From Candidatus Hermodarchaeota archaeon (lineage in GTDB: Archaea > Asgardarchaeota > Lokiarchaeia > Sigyniarchaeales > SOKP01), in assembly GCA_048885525.1 (NCBI GenBank), contig JBHLLP010000009.1, forward strand, positions 1 to 57,132: 57,132 nt of DNA. Reading direction: 5' to 3'. The notes under the pieces are model-generated. The model saw only the letters and a program-made list of their open reading frames with translations. It was not told the DNA's origin and ran no database searches. The first letter of the stretch is position 1; each line of letters opens with the position of its first letter. The position numbers and the translations under genes were made by a program. Below, piece by piece: positions 45,055 to 53,139 of this stretch.

Positions 45055-45804
45055 ATGAGTTTTAATTCTAAGGTTGAAAATTTTAAAAACAAAAAGAATC
45101 TTGATGAAGAACTAAATTATTATAAATCTATTATTCTCAAGAAGGTAAAGAGTGGAGATTATAATTCGGCTTCAGAAAAGGTAAGATCTGCATTAATATT
45201 ACTTCAAGAACATAAAAATCTTTTTAATACTGAAAAAGAACTTATTGATTTTTACGAGTTAAGTAAGAGAATACAATCAGAATTGAATAATCATAGAATG
45301 GTTTATGAACGCAGATTTAATAATCTTTTAAGAGAAAAACTTGATGAAACTAATTTAGAAAACTTTTCAAAATTATTAGCTATGTTGAAGAATGAAGTAG
45401 ATCAGAATCTAGATAAATATCATCTTCAAGATATTAGCGCTAAAATCACTAAATATTTTAAATTTATAAAGAAAATGTATGAAATATTGAGTTGTTATAA
45501 AGTTTTAAATTATCATGAAGCTTCAGATAAAATTTTTGAGTTTGTAAGAGATATTAGATGTGAGAATTTCCCAAATTTAAAGATGTTAATCTCTTTAACT
45601 TATCAAAACTTAATCAGTAATAGATTATATGAATATTCAAAGAAATTTAACAAACTTTCACTTTCTTCCCTTTCTGAAAAGTTGGCTATAAATCAAGAAC
45701 AACTATGTGATTTTATTAATATAATAAAAAACCGATCAAAAAGTCCAATACAAGACTTTATTCCTGATACTCAAGAAATTATTTTCAAAAAATCAAGATT
45801 TTAA
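45055..45804 (+). CDS. Helical protein with a C-terminal PCI-like winged helix
   Basis: Helical body. C-terminus LYEYSKKFNKLSLSSLSEKLAINQEQLCDFI...IQDFIPDTQEIIF resembles the PCI consensus (Y..isl..la..l.l....e..l...i...id......f). Confidence 0.55.
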   Translation: MSFNSKVENFKNKKNLDEELNYYKSIILKKVKSGDYNSASEKVRSALILLQEHKNLFNTEKELIDFYELSKRIQSELNNHRMVYERRFNNLLREKLDETNLENFSKLLAMLKNEVDQNLDKYHLQDISAKITKYFKFIKKMYEILSCYKVLNYHEASDKIFEFVRDIRCENFPNLKMLISLTYQNLISNRLYEYSKKFNKLSLSSLSEKLAINQEQLCDFINIIKNRSKSPIQDFIPDTQEIIFKKSRF

Positions 45805-46784: not shown

Positions 46785-47564
46785 TTAATAATCCTCTTCT
46801 TCTTCCTCATCTTCTTCTTCCTCGTCTTCGTCTTCCTCGTCTTCATCTTCCTCGTCTTCGTCTTCCTCGTTTTCTTCTTCCTCTTCCTCCTCAATGTCAG
46901 AAGATTTTTTCGGACAAGAATTTAAATGTCGCCCAAGCCTTAAAAATTCTTTTCCACAATATGGACATTTCTGTTTCTCTCCAGTTTTTTTAGCAACTCC
47001 TGTAGATCTCTTAGTAGATCCCTTTTTTTTCCTTTTTCGTTTCAATGGCATAATATCTTCCATACTTGCATCATCTGGTGCAAACTCGCATTGAGAAATA
47101 TGTGTAGCTAAGTCTGCATATAATTCACCGCAAAAAGGACATTCTACCTCTCCAAATTCTTCTGAATCTTCTAGTTGTGCTTTTCCTGCTTTTCTCTTTT
47201 CGAATTTTGATGGTGCTTCTTCTTCCTCTTCCTCAAACTCATCTATTGATAAATCAACTTCTTCATCAGATATTATCTCTCCGATTTCGAATTCTTCTAA
47301 TTTTATTTTTCTTTCTTTAATTTTTTTTTCTGCTAACTTTTTGCTTTCATCATATACATCAGAAAATCGCTGGTTATTTTTTACTGGATCATATATATTA
47401 CACACTTGACAAACATAAGCTCGAGTACCTAAAATTAAATCTCTAGCAGGACAATAACATAAAGCTTGAAGACTTGTGCTTATATTACCTTTTGGTTCAA
47501 GATGTTTGCACGCAACTTTCCTTGAATATTTAATTTTTTGTTTACGTCTTGGCATGAAATTCAC
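46785..47564 (-). CDS. Multi-zinc-finger protein with a basic patch and poly-acidic tail (ATG at 47555 likely)
   Basis: N-terminal CKH..CYC..CQVC cluster; two C-x2-C-x9-H-x3-C fingers (CPFCGELYADLATHISQC, CPYCGKEFLRLGRHLNSC); KRKRKKK; D/E tail of more than 30 residues. Confidence 0.8.
   Translation of the reverse strand: MNFMPRRKQKIKYSRKVACKHLEPKGNISTSLQALCYCPARDLILGTRAYVCQVCNIYDPVKNNQRFSDVYDESKKLAEKKIKERKIKLEEFEIGEIISDEEVDLSIDEFEEEEEEAPSKFEKRKAGKAQLEDSEEFGEVECPFCGELYADLATHISQCEFAPDDASMEDIMPLKRKRKKKGSTKRSTGVAKKTGEKQKCPYCGKEFLRLGRHLNSCPKKSSDIEEEEEEENEEDEDEEDEDEEDEDEEEEDEEEEEDY
46801..46890. repeat. 15-bp tandem repeat (5 clear + 1 degenerate copies) encoding the acidic tail
   Basis: TCTTCCTCATCTTCT, TCTTCCTCGTCTTCG, TCTTCCTCGTCTTCA, TCTTCCTCGTCTTCG, TCTTCCTCGTTTTCT, TCTTCCTCTTCCTCC. 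Confidence 0.85.
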
Positions 47565-47655: not shown

Positions 47656-49266
47656 TTAAAAGTTATAATGTATGTTTTTGAGATCGTAAACAATTTTATT
47701 TTTCAATTCAATGTTTTCGAGATTTGGTAATAAATCTTCAACAATATCTCTTAATTCCATAACTTTTTGGACAAGTAATTCTGCTTTATTCCAAAAGGAT
47801 GTTCTTAATGGATGTGTTTTTAATATAGCTTTATTAAAGTTCTCAATTGCAGCTCTATAAAATAAACAAGCATTTTCTAGTTTATTAAGTCTCGATTGAT
47901 ATATTGTTCCAATTTTATTGAAGCACATTCCAGCTCCAGCAAAATCCTCTTCTTTTTCGAATATTATGGCTGCATCTTGAATTTTATTTAAAGCTTCCTC
48001 TAAAACTTCATTATCTGCTTCCTTCAATAATAAATACCCTTTTATATAATGTGCTATTCCTAAATAAAAACTGCGATTTTGCTTTTTAGCGAGTTTATAT
48101 AATTCATCAGTAAATTCTTCAGCAAAAATTAGATGTTCATTTGAAATGCACATATGTGAGACGATTCTTAATAATTCTAAAACTCTATCAAAATTTTTAA
48201 TTTCTTTATATTTGTTAATACCTTGTCTAAATTTTTCAATTCCAGTAAATGAGTCTTTGTGTTCAAAAGCTTGGTTTCCTTCATAAATTAGTTGTTCTGC
48301 TGCTTCTTTTAACTTTATCTCCTTTTGCTTTTTCTTCGCATCAATCTCACCGTAAAAGAAATCATCTACATCGAATGCTATATCTTCACTCATAGGAATT
48401 TCAGATAAGAACTCTTTATTTCCAATACTATTAGGTTTACTCTCAAATTGAGATCTTTCTTTAATTTCTTGTTCTGATGAAATTAGAGTCTTTCCTGGTG
48501 GCAATGTATTCTCTCCATATGCAGATTGCAATGGTTTTCCTTCAGTAACTAATGCAGATAGTTCTGATAACACATTTGCGAAAAAATATTTATTAAGTCC
48601 ATCCACAACATAATCGATTTTATGATAGTTATTATCATAATCAGGATCATTAATGTCCATAGTAACATCAGTTATTTTATAAATTTCAAACCCCGTGTCA
48701 TATTTAGTCATTGTATATTCAGAACCATCTTCATTTTTTTTAATTTCTTGTTTTTTCTTTCCTAATAGTGTATGATCGAATACTAAACCACAAAAATCAT
48801 CATTGTTTTGCTGAAAACCCAACTGATTAAGTAGATCTATATAAGAAAAGAATAAGTTTAATCCAGGGTGACTATGGAACCATCCAACCATATAATATCC
48901 TTTTCCTTCCTTATCCAGGGTTTCCTGAATATTTTCAATAAATCCATAATGTCTTTCATCTAACTGCACATCTGTCGCATGACCAAAAGTTAGAGCCTCA
49001 GCTCTCTCTATATATACTAATTCTTCATCAGAATTTCCAATTAAAATACCATAGATCTCTTTCCATTCCTCGGGAGGTATTGACTTATTTGCATATCGAC
49101 TTGCATATAGGATTATTGTTTTATAAGCATCTGCTCTAATAACAACTGGCTTACTTATTTTTTCTATTATTTTTTTTTCTTTTGTCTTTTCATTTTCTAA
49201 ATTAGATTCCATATTTTCGTTTCCTGAATTTTTATTATTATTAGTTTTTTTGAATTTCTCTGACAT
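47656..49266 (-). CDS. MPN+/JAMM metalloisopeptidase (Rpn11/CSN5-like) fused to SNAP/TPR-like helical repeats
   Basis: KEIYGILIG...VGWFHSHPGLNLFFSYIDLLNQLGFQQ..FCGLVFD gives E-xn-HxH-x7-S-x2-D. C-terminal AGMCFNKIGTIYQSRLNKLENACLFYRAAIENF. Confidence 0.88.
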   Translation of the reverse strand: MSEKFKKTNNNKNSGNENMESNLENEKTKEKKIIEKISKPVVIRADAYKTIILYASRYANKSIPPEEWKEIYGILIGNSDEELVYIERAEALTFGHATDVQLDERHYGFIENIQETLDKEGKGYYMVGWFHSHPGLNLFFSYIDLLNQLGFQQNNDDFCGLVFDHTLLGKKKQEIKKNEDGSEYTMTKYDTGFEIYKITDVTMDINDPDYDNNYHKIDYVVDGLNKYFFANVLSELSALVTEGKPLQSAYGENTLPPGKTLISSEQEIKERSQFESKPNSIGNKEFLSEIPMSEDIAFDVDDFFYGEIDAKKKQKEIKLKEAAEQLIYEGNQAFEHKDSFTGIEKFRQGINKYKEIKNFDRVLELLRIVSHMCISNEHLIFAEEFTDELYKLAKKQNRSFYLGIAHYIKGYLLLKEADNEVLEEALNKIQDAAIIFEKEEDFAGAGMCFNKIGTIYQSRLNKLENACLFYRAAIENFNKAILKTHPLRTSFWNKAELLVQKVMELRDIVEDLLPNLENIELKNKIVYDLKNIHYNF

Positions 49267-49384: not shown

Positions 49385-49942
49385 TCATTTCTTTAATAGC
49401 GATTTCATAAACCGATTTTTTATTTCTTCTGGGAGTAAAGGGATGTTTTCTACCTCAGCATTCCCAGGTTGAGTTTTAATAAGAACAAAATGACATCCCT
49501 TCCCTAGGTTTTTTAGTTTTTTAATTATATCTTCTTCTTTATCAATAACGGTAATTGATCTAAATCCAGCTCCCTTAGCAATGATTTCTAATTTAGTTTT
49601 ATCACTTGTATATGTCTTTTGGTCTCCTGTGGAACCATATGAAGAATTATCAATAACTATTAGAGTTAGATTATTCGGATGATTATTAGCTATTGTACAT
49701 AGACTTCCAAGGTTCATTAATAAGGAACCATCTCCATCAATACACCATACTGCTTTTTTAGGTTGCGCAAGAGCAACACCTAGAGCTATAGAGCTAACTA
49801 GTCCCATAGATCCTAACATGTAAAAGGTTGTGGCTCTATCAGAGATATTATATAACTCACGTGAAGGTGCACCAATATTACAGATAATTAGTTCATCATT
49901 TAACAATTCTACAATCTTTTTTATAGCGTCATATCTTTTCAT
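49385..49942 (-). CDS. comE: Sulfopyruvate decarboxylase beta subunit (ThDP-binding)
   Basis: MKRYDAI, CNIGAPSRELY, FYMLGSMGL.SSIALG, DGDGSLLMNLG and DN..YGSTGDQ. Confidence 0.88.
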   Translation of the reverse strand: MKRYDAIKKIVELLNDELIICNIGAPSRELYNISDRATTFYMLGSMGLVSSIALGVALAQPKKAVWCIDGDGSLLMNLGSLCTIANNHPNNLTLIVIDNSSYGSTGDQKTYTSDKTKLEIIAKGAGFRSITVIDKEEDIIKKLKNLGKGCHFVLIKTQPGNAEVENIPLLPEEIKNRFMKSLLKK

Positions 49943-49943
49943 A

Positions 49944-50456
49944 TCATTCTCTCCATAATTGCCTTTTTAAAAGAATTCCTGCTGATTTATTGGAGTTTTT
50001 ACTAAATTCAACAGCATTTTTAATTTCTATTACTTTTTCTAATGAATCAATAATGAATTTTTCAATATTCAATATGTCTAATAGACTCGGAGTAAGCTGT
50101 CCCATAGGAATTTGAGCTATTATTTCTTCTCCTTCGGCACCTCTATGACTCATTATAAATACAACTGGAATTTTATACAATTGTAATAATGATTTTATAG
50201 CATTTACTGAATTGCCTAAACCCGAGTTTTGTATCAACAGCGCTGGAGTTCTTCCAGCTAAGTAAGCACCTGCAGCAATTCCTACACCTTCTTCTTCTCG
50301 TGTTATAGAAATATTTTGAATTTCGTGTCTTTCATCAATTTCTTCTAAAAGACCCTTCAATAAAATACAAGGTAATGATAAAATCAAGTCTATACCAGAA
50401 TCTTTAATCATTTCATATAATAGTATATCAACGTTCATAGCTCTAATGTTCTTCAA
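49944..50456 (-). CDS. comD: Sulfopyruvate decarboxylase alpha subunit (ATG at 50438 likely)
   Basis: SLPC, REEEGVGIAAGAYLAG, QNSGLGNS.N and SHRG.EGE.I.AQ.PMG. Confidence 0.88.
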   Translation of the reverse strand: MKNIRAMNVDILLYEMIKDSGIDLILSLPCILLKGLLEEIDERHEIQNISITREEEGVGIAAGAYLAGRTPALLIQNSGLGNSVNAIKSLLQLYKIPVVFIMSHRGAEGEEIIAQIPMGQLTPSLLDILNIEKFIIDSLEKVIEIKNAVEFSKNSNKSAGILLKRQLWRE

Positions 50457-50602: not shown

Positions 50603-51862
50603 ATGAAAGCACTCGTATTTAATTACAAACTTTACAGGTTAGCATTAGCTCGAATATTTGGAGCATTTTATCTAAAAGGATATCTTTCTAAATTTGGATC
50701 AGTAAGATTGAAAGATGTTCCTTTTCCAAAGCTTAAAACTAACAATTGGGTGATTGTGAAGACAAAATATTGCGGGATATGCGGTTCTGATCAGAAACAA
50801 ATCTTTCTTGATGGAAATTATGATAATCCCATAACTGCCTTACTTTCATGGCCCCAAACTTTAGGACATGAAGCTGTTGGGATTGTGGATAAAGTTGGAA
50901 AGTCATCAAATTTAAAACCGGGTGATAGAGTTGCTTTAAATCCATGGATAAGTTGCGAACCACGAGAGATTAAACCTATTTGTAAGCCTTGTGAAGAAGG
51001 AAATAAATATCTCTGTAGAAATTTTACAAAGGGTATTCTCACTCCCGGAATTCATTCAGGTACTAGTAGTGATGCTACAGGGGGATTTTCAGAATTTTTT
51101 CCAGCACATAAAACAATGGCAATAAAAATTCCTGATTCAATTTCATTTAAGCAAGCTGTTTTGTCAGATCCATTTTCAGTCGTACTTCATTCTATACTAA
51201 AAGTTGAACTTTATGAAGGATCGATTTGTGGGGTTTATGGTTGTGGAAATCTGGGGCTATTGACAATTCAATTCTTAAAGAGTATTTATGAAGATATAAC
51301 AGTAATCGCTATTGCCAGATTTCCACATCAAATAGAAATGGCAAAAAAATTTGGTGCAGATCTAGTAATCAAATCATCTCCACCAAGCAGGGTAATTGAA
51401 AGTGTTGGAGATTACTTAAATTATGATATTTATTATTTAAAAAAAAAGAAACCTTGGTTATTAGAAGGAATTGATTTTTTATTTGATACAGTTGCATCAG
51501 GAGAAACATTAGAAACAGGCTTACGTATCGTAAAATCAAGATTTGTAGATTTTAAGAATAATAAGGAGAGAGCTGGAGTAATTGTATTGACTGGAGTTCA
51601 TGTTCCTAAGAGATTTGAATGGACACCATGGTATTTTAAAGAGATAAACATTATTGGTAGTAATGCCTTTGCAATAGAAGATTTTGAAGGCACTCGAGAT
51701 CATGCTTATTATCATTATTTTCGATTATTAGAAGATGGAAGAATTGATCCAACACCAATAATTTCACATAAATTTCTCTTGAGAGATTATAAAAAAGCGT
51801 TTATAGTTGCCAGAAATCAAGAGAAATTTAAATCGATTAAAGTTAAATTTTATTATGATTAA
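50603..51862 (+). CDS. Zinc-dependent alcohol dehydrogenase (MDR family)
   Basis: CGICGSD, GHE, structural Cys cluster C-x8-CxxC-x7-C and GCGNLG. Confidence 0.9.
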   Translation: MKALVFNYKLYRLALARIFGAFYLKGYLSKFGSVRLKDVPFPKLKTNNWVIVKTKYCGICGSDQKQIFLDGNYDNPITALLSWPQTLGHEAVGIVDKVGKSSNLKPGDRVALNPWISCEPREIKPICKPCEEGNKYLCRNFTKGILTPGIHSGTSSDATGGFSEFFPAHKTMAIKIPDSISFKQAVLSDPFSVVLHSILKVELYEGSICGVYGCGNLGLLTIQFLKSIYEDITVIAIARFPHQIEMAKKFGADLVIKSSPPSRVIESVGDYLNYDIYYLKKKKPWLLEGIDFLFDTVASGETLETGLRIVKSRFVDFKNNKERAGVIVLTGVHVPKRFEWTPWYFKEINIIGSNAFAIEDFEGTRDHAYYHYFRLLEDGRIDPTPIISHKFLLRDYKKAFIVARNQEKFKSIKVKFYYD

Positions 51863-51882
51863 TAAGTGGAGTAAAAAGTTAT

Positions 51883-53139
51883 ATGAATTCAAATAAAGAA
51901 AAGGGTCCGATCCCTGCGTTAATATTCGAATTAAAAAGATTCAAGTTATTGAAAGCATTTCTTAAAAAAAAAATAAATCCTAAGGGGTTTTGGAAATCAG
52001 GAGGGCCAGTATCTATAAAAAGCATCCCATATCCAAAATCAATCGCTGAAGACTGGGTTATTGTTAAAACTGTTTATTGTGGAATTTGTGGTAGTGATAT
52101 GACTGAGTTAAATCTTAAGGGGTCACTTGATAATCCTATACGTTCTTTTATTTCTTTTCCTCAGATAATGGGACATGAACCTGTTGGGATTATAGATAGT
52201 GTTGGGCTTGAAGTTAAGAAGTTAAAAAAGGGAGATCGCGTGGTAATTACTCCGTGGTTATCATGTATTCCTCGAGGAATCTCCCCTGTATGTTCAAGGT
52301 GTTCTTTAGGTGATTTTAAACATTGTCAAAATTTCCAGAAAGGAAATCTTCCAGTAGGAATGCATTTAGGTGTTACACGTGGATTTGGGGGATTTAGTCC
52401 ATATTTATCAGTTCATGAATCTCAATGTTTTTTAATACCTGAAAAAATATCGTTTGAACAAGCAGTTTTAGCAGATCCATTTTCAGTTTCTTTCCATTCT
52501 CTATTATTATTAAATCCCAAACCAGATTCCCAAATCCTAGTTTATGGTTTAGGAATTATAGGTTTGTTAACAATACTTTGTTTAAAAAATATTTTTCGAG
52601 TAAAACATGTAATAGGTATTGGACGATATCAATTTCAAAGAGAATTAGCGCTTAAATTAGGTGCTGACCATGTTTTCTTAAGCTCAGGTGACTTATTAAT
52701 TGAAGAAATAGCAGTATATAATAATGTTGAATTATATACTCCTAAAAAAGGTCTTAAATGGGCATTAGATGGTGTAGATGGTATTGTTGATACGATAGGT
52801 TCGGCTGAGACTTTTGAAATTGGGGAGAGAATCCTCTGTACTCAAGGTAAATTAGTGTTTTTAGGTGTAAGCATACCAAAAAGGTTTGAAAATACTCTTC
52901 ATTATTTTAAAGAACTCGAAGTTATTGGTTCAAATGGATTTGGTAAAGAAATTTTCCGTGATAAGTCTTTGCATGCATTTCAGCATTATTTAAATTTTTT
53001 ATCAGAAGGATTAATAGATCCTCAGATGTTAATTACTCATAAATTTCCACTTAATGATTACAAGGATGCATTTAATACATTAGCTAATAAATCTAAAACT
53101 CAAGCTGTTAAAGTATTATTTGAATTTTCTACACCTTAG
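51883..53139 (+). CDS. Zinc-dependent alcohol dehydrogenase (MDR family), tandem paralog
   Basis: CGICGSD, GHE, C-x8-CxxC-x7-C, GLGIIG and ITHKF.L.DY. Confidence 0.9.
   Translation: MNSNKEKGPIPALIFELKRFKLLKAFLKKKINPKGFWKSGGPVSIKSIPYPKSIAEDWVIVKTVYCGICGSDMTELNLKGSLDNPIRSFISFPQIMGHEPVGIIDSVGLEVKKLKKGDRVVITPWLSCIPRGISPVCSRCSLGDFKHCQNFQKGNLPVGMHLGVTRGFGGFSPYLSVHESQCFLIPEKISFEQAVLADPFSVSFHSLLLLNPKPDSQILVYGLGIIGLLTILCLKNIFRVKHVIGIGRYQFQRELALKLGADHVFLSSGDLLIEEIAVYNNVELYTPKKGLKWALDGVDGIVDTIGSAETFEIGERILCTQGKLVFLGVSIPKRFENTLHYFKELEVIGSNGFGKEIFRDKSLHAFQHYLNFLSEGLIDPQMLITHKFPLNDYKDAFNTLANKSKTQAVKVLFEFSTP

Follow-up and report, generated by a model that had tools for sequence, protein, structure and literature searches.

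Background

Among known prokaryotes, Asgard archaea stand nearest to eukaryotes, and their ubiquitin systems are investigated as precursors of the eukaryotic one. Of all prokaryotic sequences, the JAMM proteins of Caldiarchaeum and of Asgard archaea were found to come nearest to Rpn11 (Fuchs et al. 2018; PMC6043591); the one from Candidatus Caldiarchaeum subterraneum, CsRpn11, is a monomeric, active deubiquitinase in which insertion 1 (Ins-1) positions the ubiquitin tail (PMC6043591). In the literature that we found, this minimal, operon-encoded protein is the sole Rpn11-like enzyme of archaea to be mentioned by name. The present report concerns P0001, a 536-residue protein of Candidatus Hermodarchaeota archaeon, in which a catalytic MPN+/JAMM domain is followed by a linker and a tetratricopeptide repeat (TPR) domain. 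Its gene lies in a 57,132-nucleotide stretch of DNA, below referred to as the window (assembly GCA_048885525.1, contig JBHLLP010000009.1, positions 1 to 57,132). We presume, with moderate confidence, that P0001 is a zinc-dependent isopeptidase which works on its own and acts on a ubiquitin-like modifier, and that its TPR domain would serve as a tethered, peptide-binding module for targeting or scaffolding.

Eukaryotic MPN+ enzymes take their targeting from separate subunits or domains, such as PCI proteins, STAM and MIT, or Abraxas and RAP80. The enzyme class of P0001 is known, as is its kinship with eukaryotes; what is new is the architecture, MPN plus TPR. The literature seems to hold no description of an MPN-TPR fusion in Asgard archaea, or of the trio formed there by the MPN-TPR, zinc-finger and radical-SAM genes.

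Results

Gene and protein layout

The first-pass annotation had placed a JAMM domain fused to helical repeats in the open reading frame (ORF) at 47656..49266. This holds, and both peptides quoted there are present in the translation. A chance ORF is out of the question, since many full-length homologues exist: at least 380 were found at E <= 0.001 in the sequence search, and 120 homologues among the matches listed are 60-100% identical to P0001, nearly all over at least 90% of its length. The relatives come almost exclusively from metagenome-assembled genomes of Promethearchaeota/Lokiarchaeia and carry database labels of two kinds, “hypothetical protein” or “proteasome lid subunit RPN8/RPN11”. 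The host assembly comprises 87 contigs and is 99% complete; the window is AT-rich, with a GC content of about 30%. Conservation is described below from an alignment of 43 orthologues (A1), 42-82% identical to P0001. The parts of the gene are as follows, with the confidence of the full-length AlphaFold2 model given as the predicted local distance difference test (pLDDT).

47656..49266, minus strand: P0001, MPN+/JAMM-linker-TPR protein, 536 aa; ORF with the stop codon within the coordinates
49162..49266, minus strand: N-terminal tail, residues 1-35, low-complexity; variable or gapped in the alignment, pLDDT <50 at 1-36
48511..49161, minus strand: MPN+/JAMM domain, residues ~36-252, with a conserved last helix (228-241); from Pfam JAB, the profile and Foldseek
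49057..49059, minus strand: codon of the predicted catalytic glutamate E70, invariant in 43 sequences
48835..48876, minus strand: zinc-binding JAMM motif H131-S-H133-x7-S141-x2-D144, invariant in the alignment
48511-48540, minus strand: linker motif G-K-P-L-Q-S-A-Y-G-E, residues 243-252, invariant, in a segment predicted to be disordered
48334..48510, minus strand: linker, residues 253-311, variable, partly acidic, predicted disordered; pLDDT <50 at 242-309
48358..48408, minus strand: linker motif L287-x-E-I290-P291-...-F298, residues 287-303; L287, I290 and P291 invariant, F298 in at least 90%
47659..48333, minus strand: C-terminal TPR domain, residues 312-536, ten helices forming four TPR-like hairpins and two capping helices; from the model, VIA and Atlas

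In the full-length AlphaFold2 model, computed with A1, the MPN domain has a pLDDT of mostly 62-90 per ten-residue block (50-57 for an insert at ~171-190) and the helical domain 79-96. Since the predicted template modelling score (pTM) is 0.46, the two domains have no fixed orientation relative to each other. The acidic linker followed by helical repeats, as proposed earlier, is thus borne out, the linker being variable, only partly acidic and predicted to be disordered, with ten helices after it. In A1 a long conserved block, G223-E252, takes in the last MPN helix, and the conserved helical domain begins at about residue 318. Judged from this alignment, both domains and two short linker motifs are under strong purifying selection. 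The second of these motifs reads in full L-x-E-I-P-M-x-E-D-I-x-F. Both look like docking motifs, and neither was docked on the MPN or the TPR domain in the AlphaFold model. Kinesin light chain has an autoinhibitory LFP-acidic motif; by analogy, and as a speculation that the model did not reproduce, the motif at residues 287-303 might bind the TPR groove in cis.

The catalytic domain

JAB/MPN (PF01398) is the only Pfam domain above threshold in the whole protein, matching residues 39-154 with 46.9 bits against a cut-off of 22.5. Below threshold lie Prok-JAB (24.6 bits, cut-off 25), Rgg_C (residues 334-437) and SNAP (residues 421-480). E70, H131, H133, S141 and D144 are invariant in the 43 orthologues, at identities down to 42%. 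The peptide GWFHSHPGLNLFFSYIDLLNQLGFQQ (residues 128-153) contains H131-x-H133-x7-S141-x2-D144, and E70 sits at the glutamate of the Rpn11/CSN5 signature E-x2-G-x-(L/M)-x-G, at which the alignment with CSN5 begins; the complete E...HxHx7Sx2D motif is therefore present. Ins-1 (residues ~93-103) aligns to the corresponding region of CsRpn11 with no more than a short gap, and its residues T93, G95, V100 and L102 are invariant.

A single-sequence search of the PDB sequences places Caldiarchaeum Rpn11 at the top (9.6e-11), followed by CSN5, Rpn11, BRCC36, Rpn8 and AMSH. The family profile gives a similar ranking: CsRpn11 at 3e-16, yeast Rpn11 at 3e-13 and CSN5 at 5e-13, with BRCC36 (4e-9), Rpn8 (6e-4) and AMSH (8e-4) weaker; profile positions 70-287 align to residues 31-240 of yeast Rpn11. 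The PDB holds structures of archaeal JAMM1/desampylase and of bacterial JAB proteins, and none of these appears at E <= 1 among the best 60 of the 61 profile matches. With the full model as query, the best 50 Foldseek matches consist entirely of CSN5, Rpn11, BRCC36 and CsRpn11 (E from 1.7e-8 to ~1.6e-6), the best fit being CsRpn11 chain 6fnn_A of the ubiquitin complex, with a target-normalised template modelling score (TMt) of 0.83 and a root mean square deviation (rmsd) of 2.7 A.

Because JAB scores 46.9 bits and Prok-JAB remains below its cut-off, and because of the PDB ranking, the assignment of the MPN domain to the eukaryote-like Rpn11/CSN5 branch, and not to archaeal JAMM1/2 or bacterial Prok-JAB, is supported. 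The earlier reading of this domain as Rpn11/CSN5-like agrees with Pfam, the profile ranking and the structural matches alike. It also held that the protein follows the eukaryotic pattern GWYHSHPG.GCWLSG.D..TQ more closely than short prokaryotic JAMMs do. The JAB paralogues that the host genome encodes in its operons (GWYHSHPSYGCFLS, GWWHSHPGFGCFLS) are nearer to the eukaryotic GCWLS pattern than P0001 is. The kinship to eukaryotic Rpn11 is already published and is a known property of Asgard JAMMs.

The C-terminal helical domain

Residues 312-536 modelled alone (alignment A2) give a pLDDT of 95.3 and a pTM of 0.90. Of the ten predicted helices, eight are each some 17 residues long and separated by turns of three; to these are added a 14-residue loop carrying an invariant H-P-x-R...W and two capping helices. 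Foldseek against the PDB yields no match to this domain better than E 1e-3; the top of its list mixes BtubC, alpha-SNAP (query-normalised score, TMq, 0.50), KLC1 (TMq 0.57-0.63), LGN and 14-3-3. An exhaustive VIA search ranks Pins first (Z 19.4, rmsd 3.5 A) and LGN second (Z 18.1, rmsd 2.8 A), followed by a Deinococcus TPR protein, BtubC, a Leishmania flagellar doublet-microtubule protein, Sec17, NASP, KLC and Rap/PlcR; many TPR proteins reach Z 13-19. Sec17 stands at Z 16.4 and alpha-SNAP at Z 14.0, with an rmsd of 6.0 A, lower than Pins and LGN and on a par with KLC, NASP, Rap/PlcR and 14-3-3, and a lid PCI subunit (8amz_Q) is found mid-table at Z 12.1. According to the VIA guidance, matches between helical repeats are meaningful only with a clear margin, and SNAP shows none. 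The ESM Atlas shape search returns solely clusters of the TPR_1/2/12 type (TM 0.57-0.70), with no SNAP cluster in the top 10.

At the sequence level P0001 alone has no TPR model among its four Pfam matches at E <= 0.1. TPR_8 matches at this threshold occur in 20 of the 43 family members, and one member, P0127, exceeds the Pfam cut-offs of TPR_1, TPR_2 and TPR_12 on the homologous stretch. By its model, the C-terminal domain can be counted with high confidence among the generic TPRs, in the LGN/KLC/TPR_12 class. LGN, KLC, Rap/PlcR and NASP bind extended peptides.

Distribution and paralogues

The fusion is conserved across one order of the Lokiarchaeia. Full-length orthologues are present in 68 of the 68 sampled genomes of P0001's own family and in one genus of the sister family (43-45% identity); beyond these, the rest of the phylum matches P0001 in the MPN part only. 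The exhaustive search with the MPN domain covered 1.84 billion cluster representatives (50% identity clusters), and 387 clusters reach E <= 0.001, a broad radiation of MPN paralogues to which P0001 belongs. The TPR domain is also present in about 13 of the best 150. In the tree of MPN domains, 12 of the 13 TPR-carrying representatives form one clade (Shimodaira-Hasegawa-like approximate likelihood-ratio support, SH-aLRT, 99). The clade also takes in seven shorter rows, probably truncated copies, which showed no detectable TPR domain. A distant relative with the same architecture, P0173 (26% identity), falls in a neighbouring clade. The representatives found by the search were nearly all archaeal paralogues, and the single eukaryotic one, the CSN5-like P0270, fell out at the domain-coverage filter. 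The tree thus covers archaeal paralogues and no eukaryotic sequences, and is silent on which paralogue is nearest to eukaryotes.

A scan of the other 100 MPN paralogue representatives found about 12 with TPR-class domains, four with MIT, two with RPN7/PCI and one with TIR. Outside the MPN-TPR clade stand the close MPN paralogues P0141, P0144, P0147, P0148 and P0151 (~576-593 aa, 40-45% MPN identity); in P0141, the scanned member of this group, the C-terminal region of about 380 residues has no Pfam match. The host genome itself has seven JAB ORFs. At positions 59280-62561 of contig C7 two adjacent MPN+ genes (459 and 488 aa) have long C-terminal regions without a Pfam domain, and the opposite strand carries a 116-aa JAB-domain ORF without the HxH motif, possibly an MPN- partner.

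The ubiquitin system of the host genome

The genome encodes five ubiquitin-family ORFs, three E2 and five E1/ThiF homologues, which include the following clusters.

Contig C47, 7526-12473: Asgard ubiquitin operon of canonical type, with three ubiquitin-family ORFs, E1, E2 and the 276-aa Rpn11-like JAB (GWYHSHPSYGCFLS)
Contig C37, 27722-29631: E2/E1/JAB cluster
Contig C16: E2/E1 pair

Three of the four ubiquitin-like ORFs read have free ...IPAS(T/I)AG ends; an -AG end with no C-terminal extension to process is found in two of the three ubiquitin-family ORFs of C47 and in one on C35. The P0001 gene lies on contig C9, outside all of the ubiquitin, E1 and E2 clusters and among unrelated neighbours.

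Genomic neighbourhood

The neighbourhood was compared over 14 loci, 12 from the own family and two from the sister family. The genes around P0001 in the window are these.

46785..47564, minus strand: C2HC zinc-finger protein, 259 aa, with an N-terminal Cys/His module and an acidic tail; 91 bp downstream of the P0001 gene
45842..46765, minus strand: radical-SAM enzyme, 307 aa (Pfam Radical_SAM, 58 bits); 19 bp after the zinc-finger gene
45055-45804, plus strand: all-helical protein, 249 aa; adjacent in 8 of the 14 loci
49385-50456, minus strand: thiamine-pyrophosphate enzyme split into subunits of 170 and 185 aa, next to the MPN gene on its upstream side
50603-53139, plus strand: two tandem paralogous proteins, 418 and 419 aa, zinc-dependent dehydrogenase-like by eye

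The order MPN-TPR, zinc-finger, radical-SAM is co-directional in all 12 own-family loci, and the same genes are nearby in the two sister-family loci; the radical-SAM gene is present in 14 of the 14. In the zinc-finger protein the N-terminal Cys/His module and the last finger, C-P-x-C-x-K...R-H...C, are invariant; the protein also has an acidic motif, D-L-x-x-D-E-F with a run of Glu. The fingers may conceivably bind ubiquitin in the manner of UBZ4. No NCBIfam model reaches its cut-off for the radical-SAM enzyme, and NCBIfam has no specific family for the zinc-finger protein or P0001. The pair of zinc-finger and radical-SAM genes is conserved across the order. It is missing from the neighbourhood of P0173, where a 249-aa and a 213-aa gene show no homology to the 249-aa and zinc-finger families of the window (hhalign probability 0.2%).

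The 249-aa protein is 29-83% identical over eight loci. Its last ~45 residues match Pfam PCI below threshold in three of nine members (E 0.01-0.055), PSMD3 at 0.22 and a plant lid PCI protein at 0.68; an Atlas feature match (0.83) leads to a Thorarchaeota cluster with PCI in 19% of its members. A Pfam ParD match at residues 21-62 is probably spurious. The split thiamine-pyrophosphate enzyme resembles a two-subunit sulfopyruvate decarboxylase; its synteny with the MPN gene, like that of the 418/419-aa genes, is limited to the genus. No AAA ATPase is conserved nearby in the loci examined, and no ESCRT gene or MPN- gene is adjacent.

Discussion

We propose that P0001 would act as a soluble, single-chain zinc isopeptidase of the Rpn11/CSN5 branch. 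Its most probable task would be to detach the ubiquitin-like modifier of this archaeon from the proteins that carry it. Some 60 flexible residues connect the catalytic domain to the C-terminal TPR domain, which may bring specific substrates or partners to the protease; the targeting would then be built into the same polypeptide. Several observations weigh against this proposal. The placement relative to the eukaryotic MPN families comes from score rankings, the tree being one of archaeal paralogues. The ubiquitin/E1/E2 operons on C47 and C37 hold JAB proteases of their own; P0001 lies outside them, and its substrate might instead be a different beta-grasp protein or a peptide. The genomic context is of limited help: the zinc-finger/radical-SAM pair stays adjacent in the sister-family genera g10, g12 and g13, in whose genomes (85-93% complete) both P0001 and its TPR domain went undetected. 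Neighbours that also occur where the MPN-TPR gene was not found are no secure guide to its function. The pair is therefore an older, self-sufficient unit and the MPN-TPR gene an addition beside it, so that an obligate complex is unlikely; the idea of an obligate partnership is weakened to this extent.

Among the alternatives, one would take P0001 away from ubiquitin: a JAMM peptidase serving the zinc-finger/radical-SAM pair, for instance by trimming a modified protein or peptide or by setting it free, much as bacterial JAB proteases process sulfur-carrier proteins. The gene order kept in every own-family locus examined (gaps of 91 and 19 bp), the proximity of the three genes in the sister family and the position outside the ubiquitin operons speak for it. 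We nevertheless consider it unlikely, given that the pair persists in g10, g12 and g13, where the MPN-TPR gene was not detected, that P0173 shares the architecture of P0001 and lacks these neighbours, and that the MPN domain is nearest to true deubiquitinases and not to Prok-JAB enzymes of the Mec+/QbsD type. It is tempting to see in the 249-aa protein a PCI-like scaffold and in P0001 the catalytic subunit of a small lid- or CSN-like assembly that would also include the zinc-finger protein. The 249-aa gene is adjacent in 8 of the 14 loci, its C-terminal residues have the weak PCI-type and Atlas matches described above, and two MPN paralogue representatives carry RPN7/PCI; however, none of the PCI signals comes anywhere near threshold, 6 of the 14 loci lack the gene, which lies on the opposite strand, and there is no MPN- partner nearby. 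A PCI-like C-terminus of P0001 itself is not supported either, the TPR domain ending without a winged helix and the lid PCI subunit being mid-table in VIA. PCI complexes are not known in archaea (PMC6043591), and we hold such an assembly to be quite improbable.

The two remaining alternatives read the helical domain differently. The first-pass annotation had likened it to alpha-SNAP, and suggested that removal of a ubiquitin-like modifier is possibly coupled to membrane trafficking or to an AAA ATPase of the NSF/Cdc48 type. Sub-threshold SNAP matches do occur in 40 of the 43 family members on the same stretch (best E 9.8e-6), that of P0001 falling at the second quoted peptide, AGMCFNKIGTIYQSRLNKLENACLFYRAAIENF (residues 421-480); Sec17 and alpha-SNAP are among the structural matches, and 3j96_G is second in the Foldseek list (E 2e-3). 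P0001 nonetheless scores 19.5 bits as a whole protein and 22.3 bits as the domain alone, below the cut-off of 25; canonical TPRs fit better, Pins at 3.5 A as against 6.0 A for Sec17; and the Atlas neighbours are all TPR_1/2/12 clusters. The SNAP model cross-matches generic TPRs: it matches 22 places in the host genome, among which the P0001 gene ranks seventh (20 bits), and 8 of 14 control genomes without SNAP, E. coli and B. subtilis included, and in P0127 its match overlaps the above-threshold TPR_1, TPR_2 and TPR_12 matches. Homology to alpha-SNAP is rejected. No AAA ATPase is conserved nearby, and we give very little credence to the coupling; no evidence was found for the link to trafficking or an AAA ATPase. 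The structure search that had been suggested for this region places canonical TPR proteins above alpha-SNAP in the VIA ranking. AMSH is built of MIT and JAMM domains, and one could likewise imagine an ESCRT-linked deubiquitinase in which the last helices of P0001 are an MIT-like bundle binding the MIM motifs of ESCRT-III. Weak MIT matches at residues ~461-510 are present in 20 of the 43 members (best E 2.7e-5), and four MPN paralogue representatives carry MIT. An MIT-like tail is, however, not supported in P0001: it scores 15.1 bits against the Pfam MIT model (PF04212, cut-off 30), and the whole-genome MIT scan (E <= 0.1) finds a presumed Vps4 and 17 other places and does not detect the P0001 gene. 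AMSH is moreover the most distant MPN+ match (8e-4), and no ESCRT gene is nearby, which makes this version highly improbable. The sub-threshold matches in the family include Rgg_C as well, in 39 of the 43 members.

The stand-alone, TPR-targeted isopeptidase thus seems to us the best account of P0001. As far as the sequences indicate, Lokiarchaeia keep a conserved, apparently active enzyme of the Rpn11/CSN5 type outside the conjugation operons and with a built-in TPR domain. The paralogues with TPR, MIT, PCI/RPN7 and TIR domains suggest that the specialisation of deubiquitinases via targeting modules began in archaea, before eukaryotes. One may go further and suppose that the family preserves an early solution to targeting, a helical-repeat scaffold fused to an MPN+ enzyme of the Rpn11/CSN5 type, together with the PCI-like 249-aa protein and the C2HC protein as a possible ubiquitin receptor. 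We regard this as quite improbable; if it holds, Asgard archaea would offer in this locus a present-day model of the deubiquitinase module that preceded the lid. The same logic is divided in eukaryotes between PCI and MPN proteins, which are separate subunits of the proteasome lid, CSN and eIF3. The value of the observation is moderate: the class of enzyme and its kinship are not new, and nothing specific about function can be read from the TPR domain. On the practical side, P0001 is predicted to be soluble and single-chain, with both domains modelled confidently, and is a tractable target for biochemistry.

Comparison with known systems

The best structural matches of residues 312-536 are LGN/Pins, KLC and BtubC (Z 19.4, 18.1, 16.9 and 15.6). 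Repeat length and capping helices agree with the P0001 TPR domain; the identity is 10-15%, the ligands are unrelated, and a fused protease is absent from all of them. Alpha-SNAP/Sec17 (PF14938) is, like the P0001 domain, an alpha-hairpin solenoid, and resembles it locally in sequence at 421-480; it differs in the Pfam score, which is below the cut-off, and in a structural fit poorer than that of canonical TPRs (rmsd 6 A).

In general design P0001 recalls AMSH/AMSH-LP (STAMBP), which also consists of a stand-alone JAMM domain, a flexible linker and a protein-binding domain of the alpha-helical hairpin type. The domain order is reversed, as MIT is N-terminal in AMSH; the targeting domain is a four-repeat TPR in P0001 and a three-helix MIT in AMSH; and P0001 is without the zinc-binding Ins-2. 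The relation is limited to the MPN fold, the AMSH domain being the weakest of the MPN+ matches (8e-4).

CsRpn11 (PDB 6fjv, 6fju, 6fnn; PMC6043591) is both the best sequence match and the best structural fit of P0001. The two have in common the JAMM residues, Ins-1 and the absence of the long lid-anchoring Ins-2; both are archaeal, and neither is built into a proteasome lid. CsRpn11 has about 200 residues, with no domain besides MPN, and its gene belongs to a ubiquitin/E1/E2/E3 operon, whereas P0001 has 536, with the linker and the TPR domain added, and is encoded outside the ubiquitin operons. P0001 also has the extra beta-hairpin insert (~171-189), which is deleted in the sister family. The operon position of CsRpn11 is held in the host genome by another paralogue, that of contig C47, and P0001 is not of this operon type.

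Eukaryotic Rpn11 (PSMD14) and CSN5 belong to the same MPN+ subfamily as P0001 by the Pfam JAB score, the sequence ranking and the fold; the alignment with yeast Rpn11 covers the whole MPN domain and runs on into the linker. P0001 reads GLNLFFS where the eukaryotic enzymes read G(F/Y)GCWLS, and, unlike Rpn11 and CSN5, it has no gene for an MPN- partner of the Rpn8/CSN6 type adjacent to it. In place of their C-terminal lid-bundle helices it has the linker and the TPR domain, so that the helical-repeat scaffold, supplied to Rpn11 and CSN5 by separate PCI subunits, is in P0001 part of the same polypeptide.

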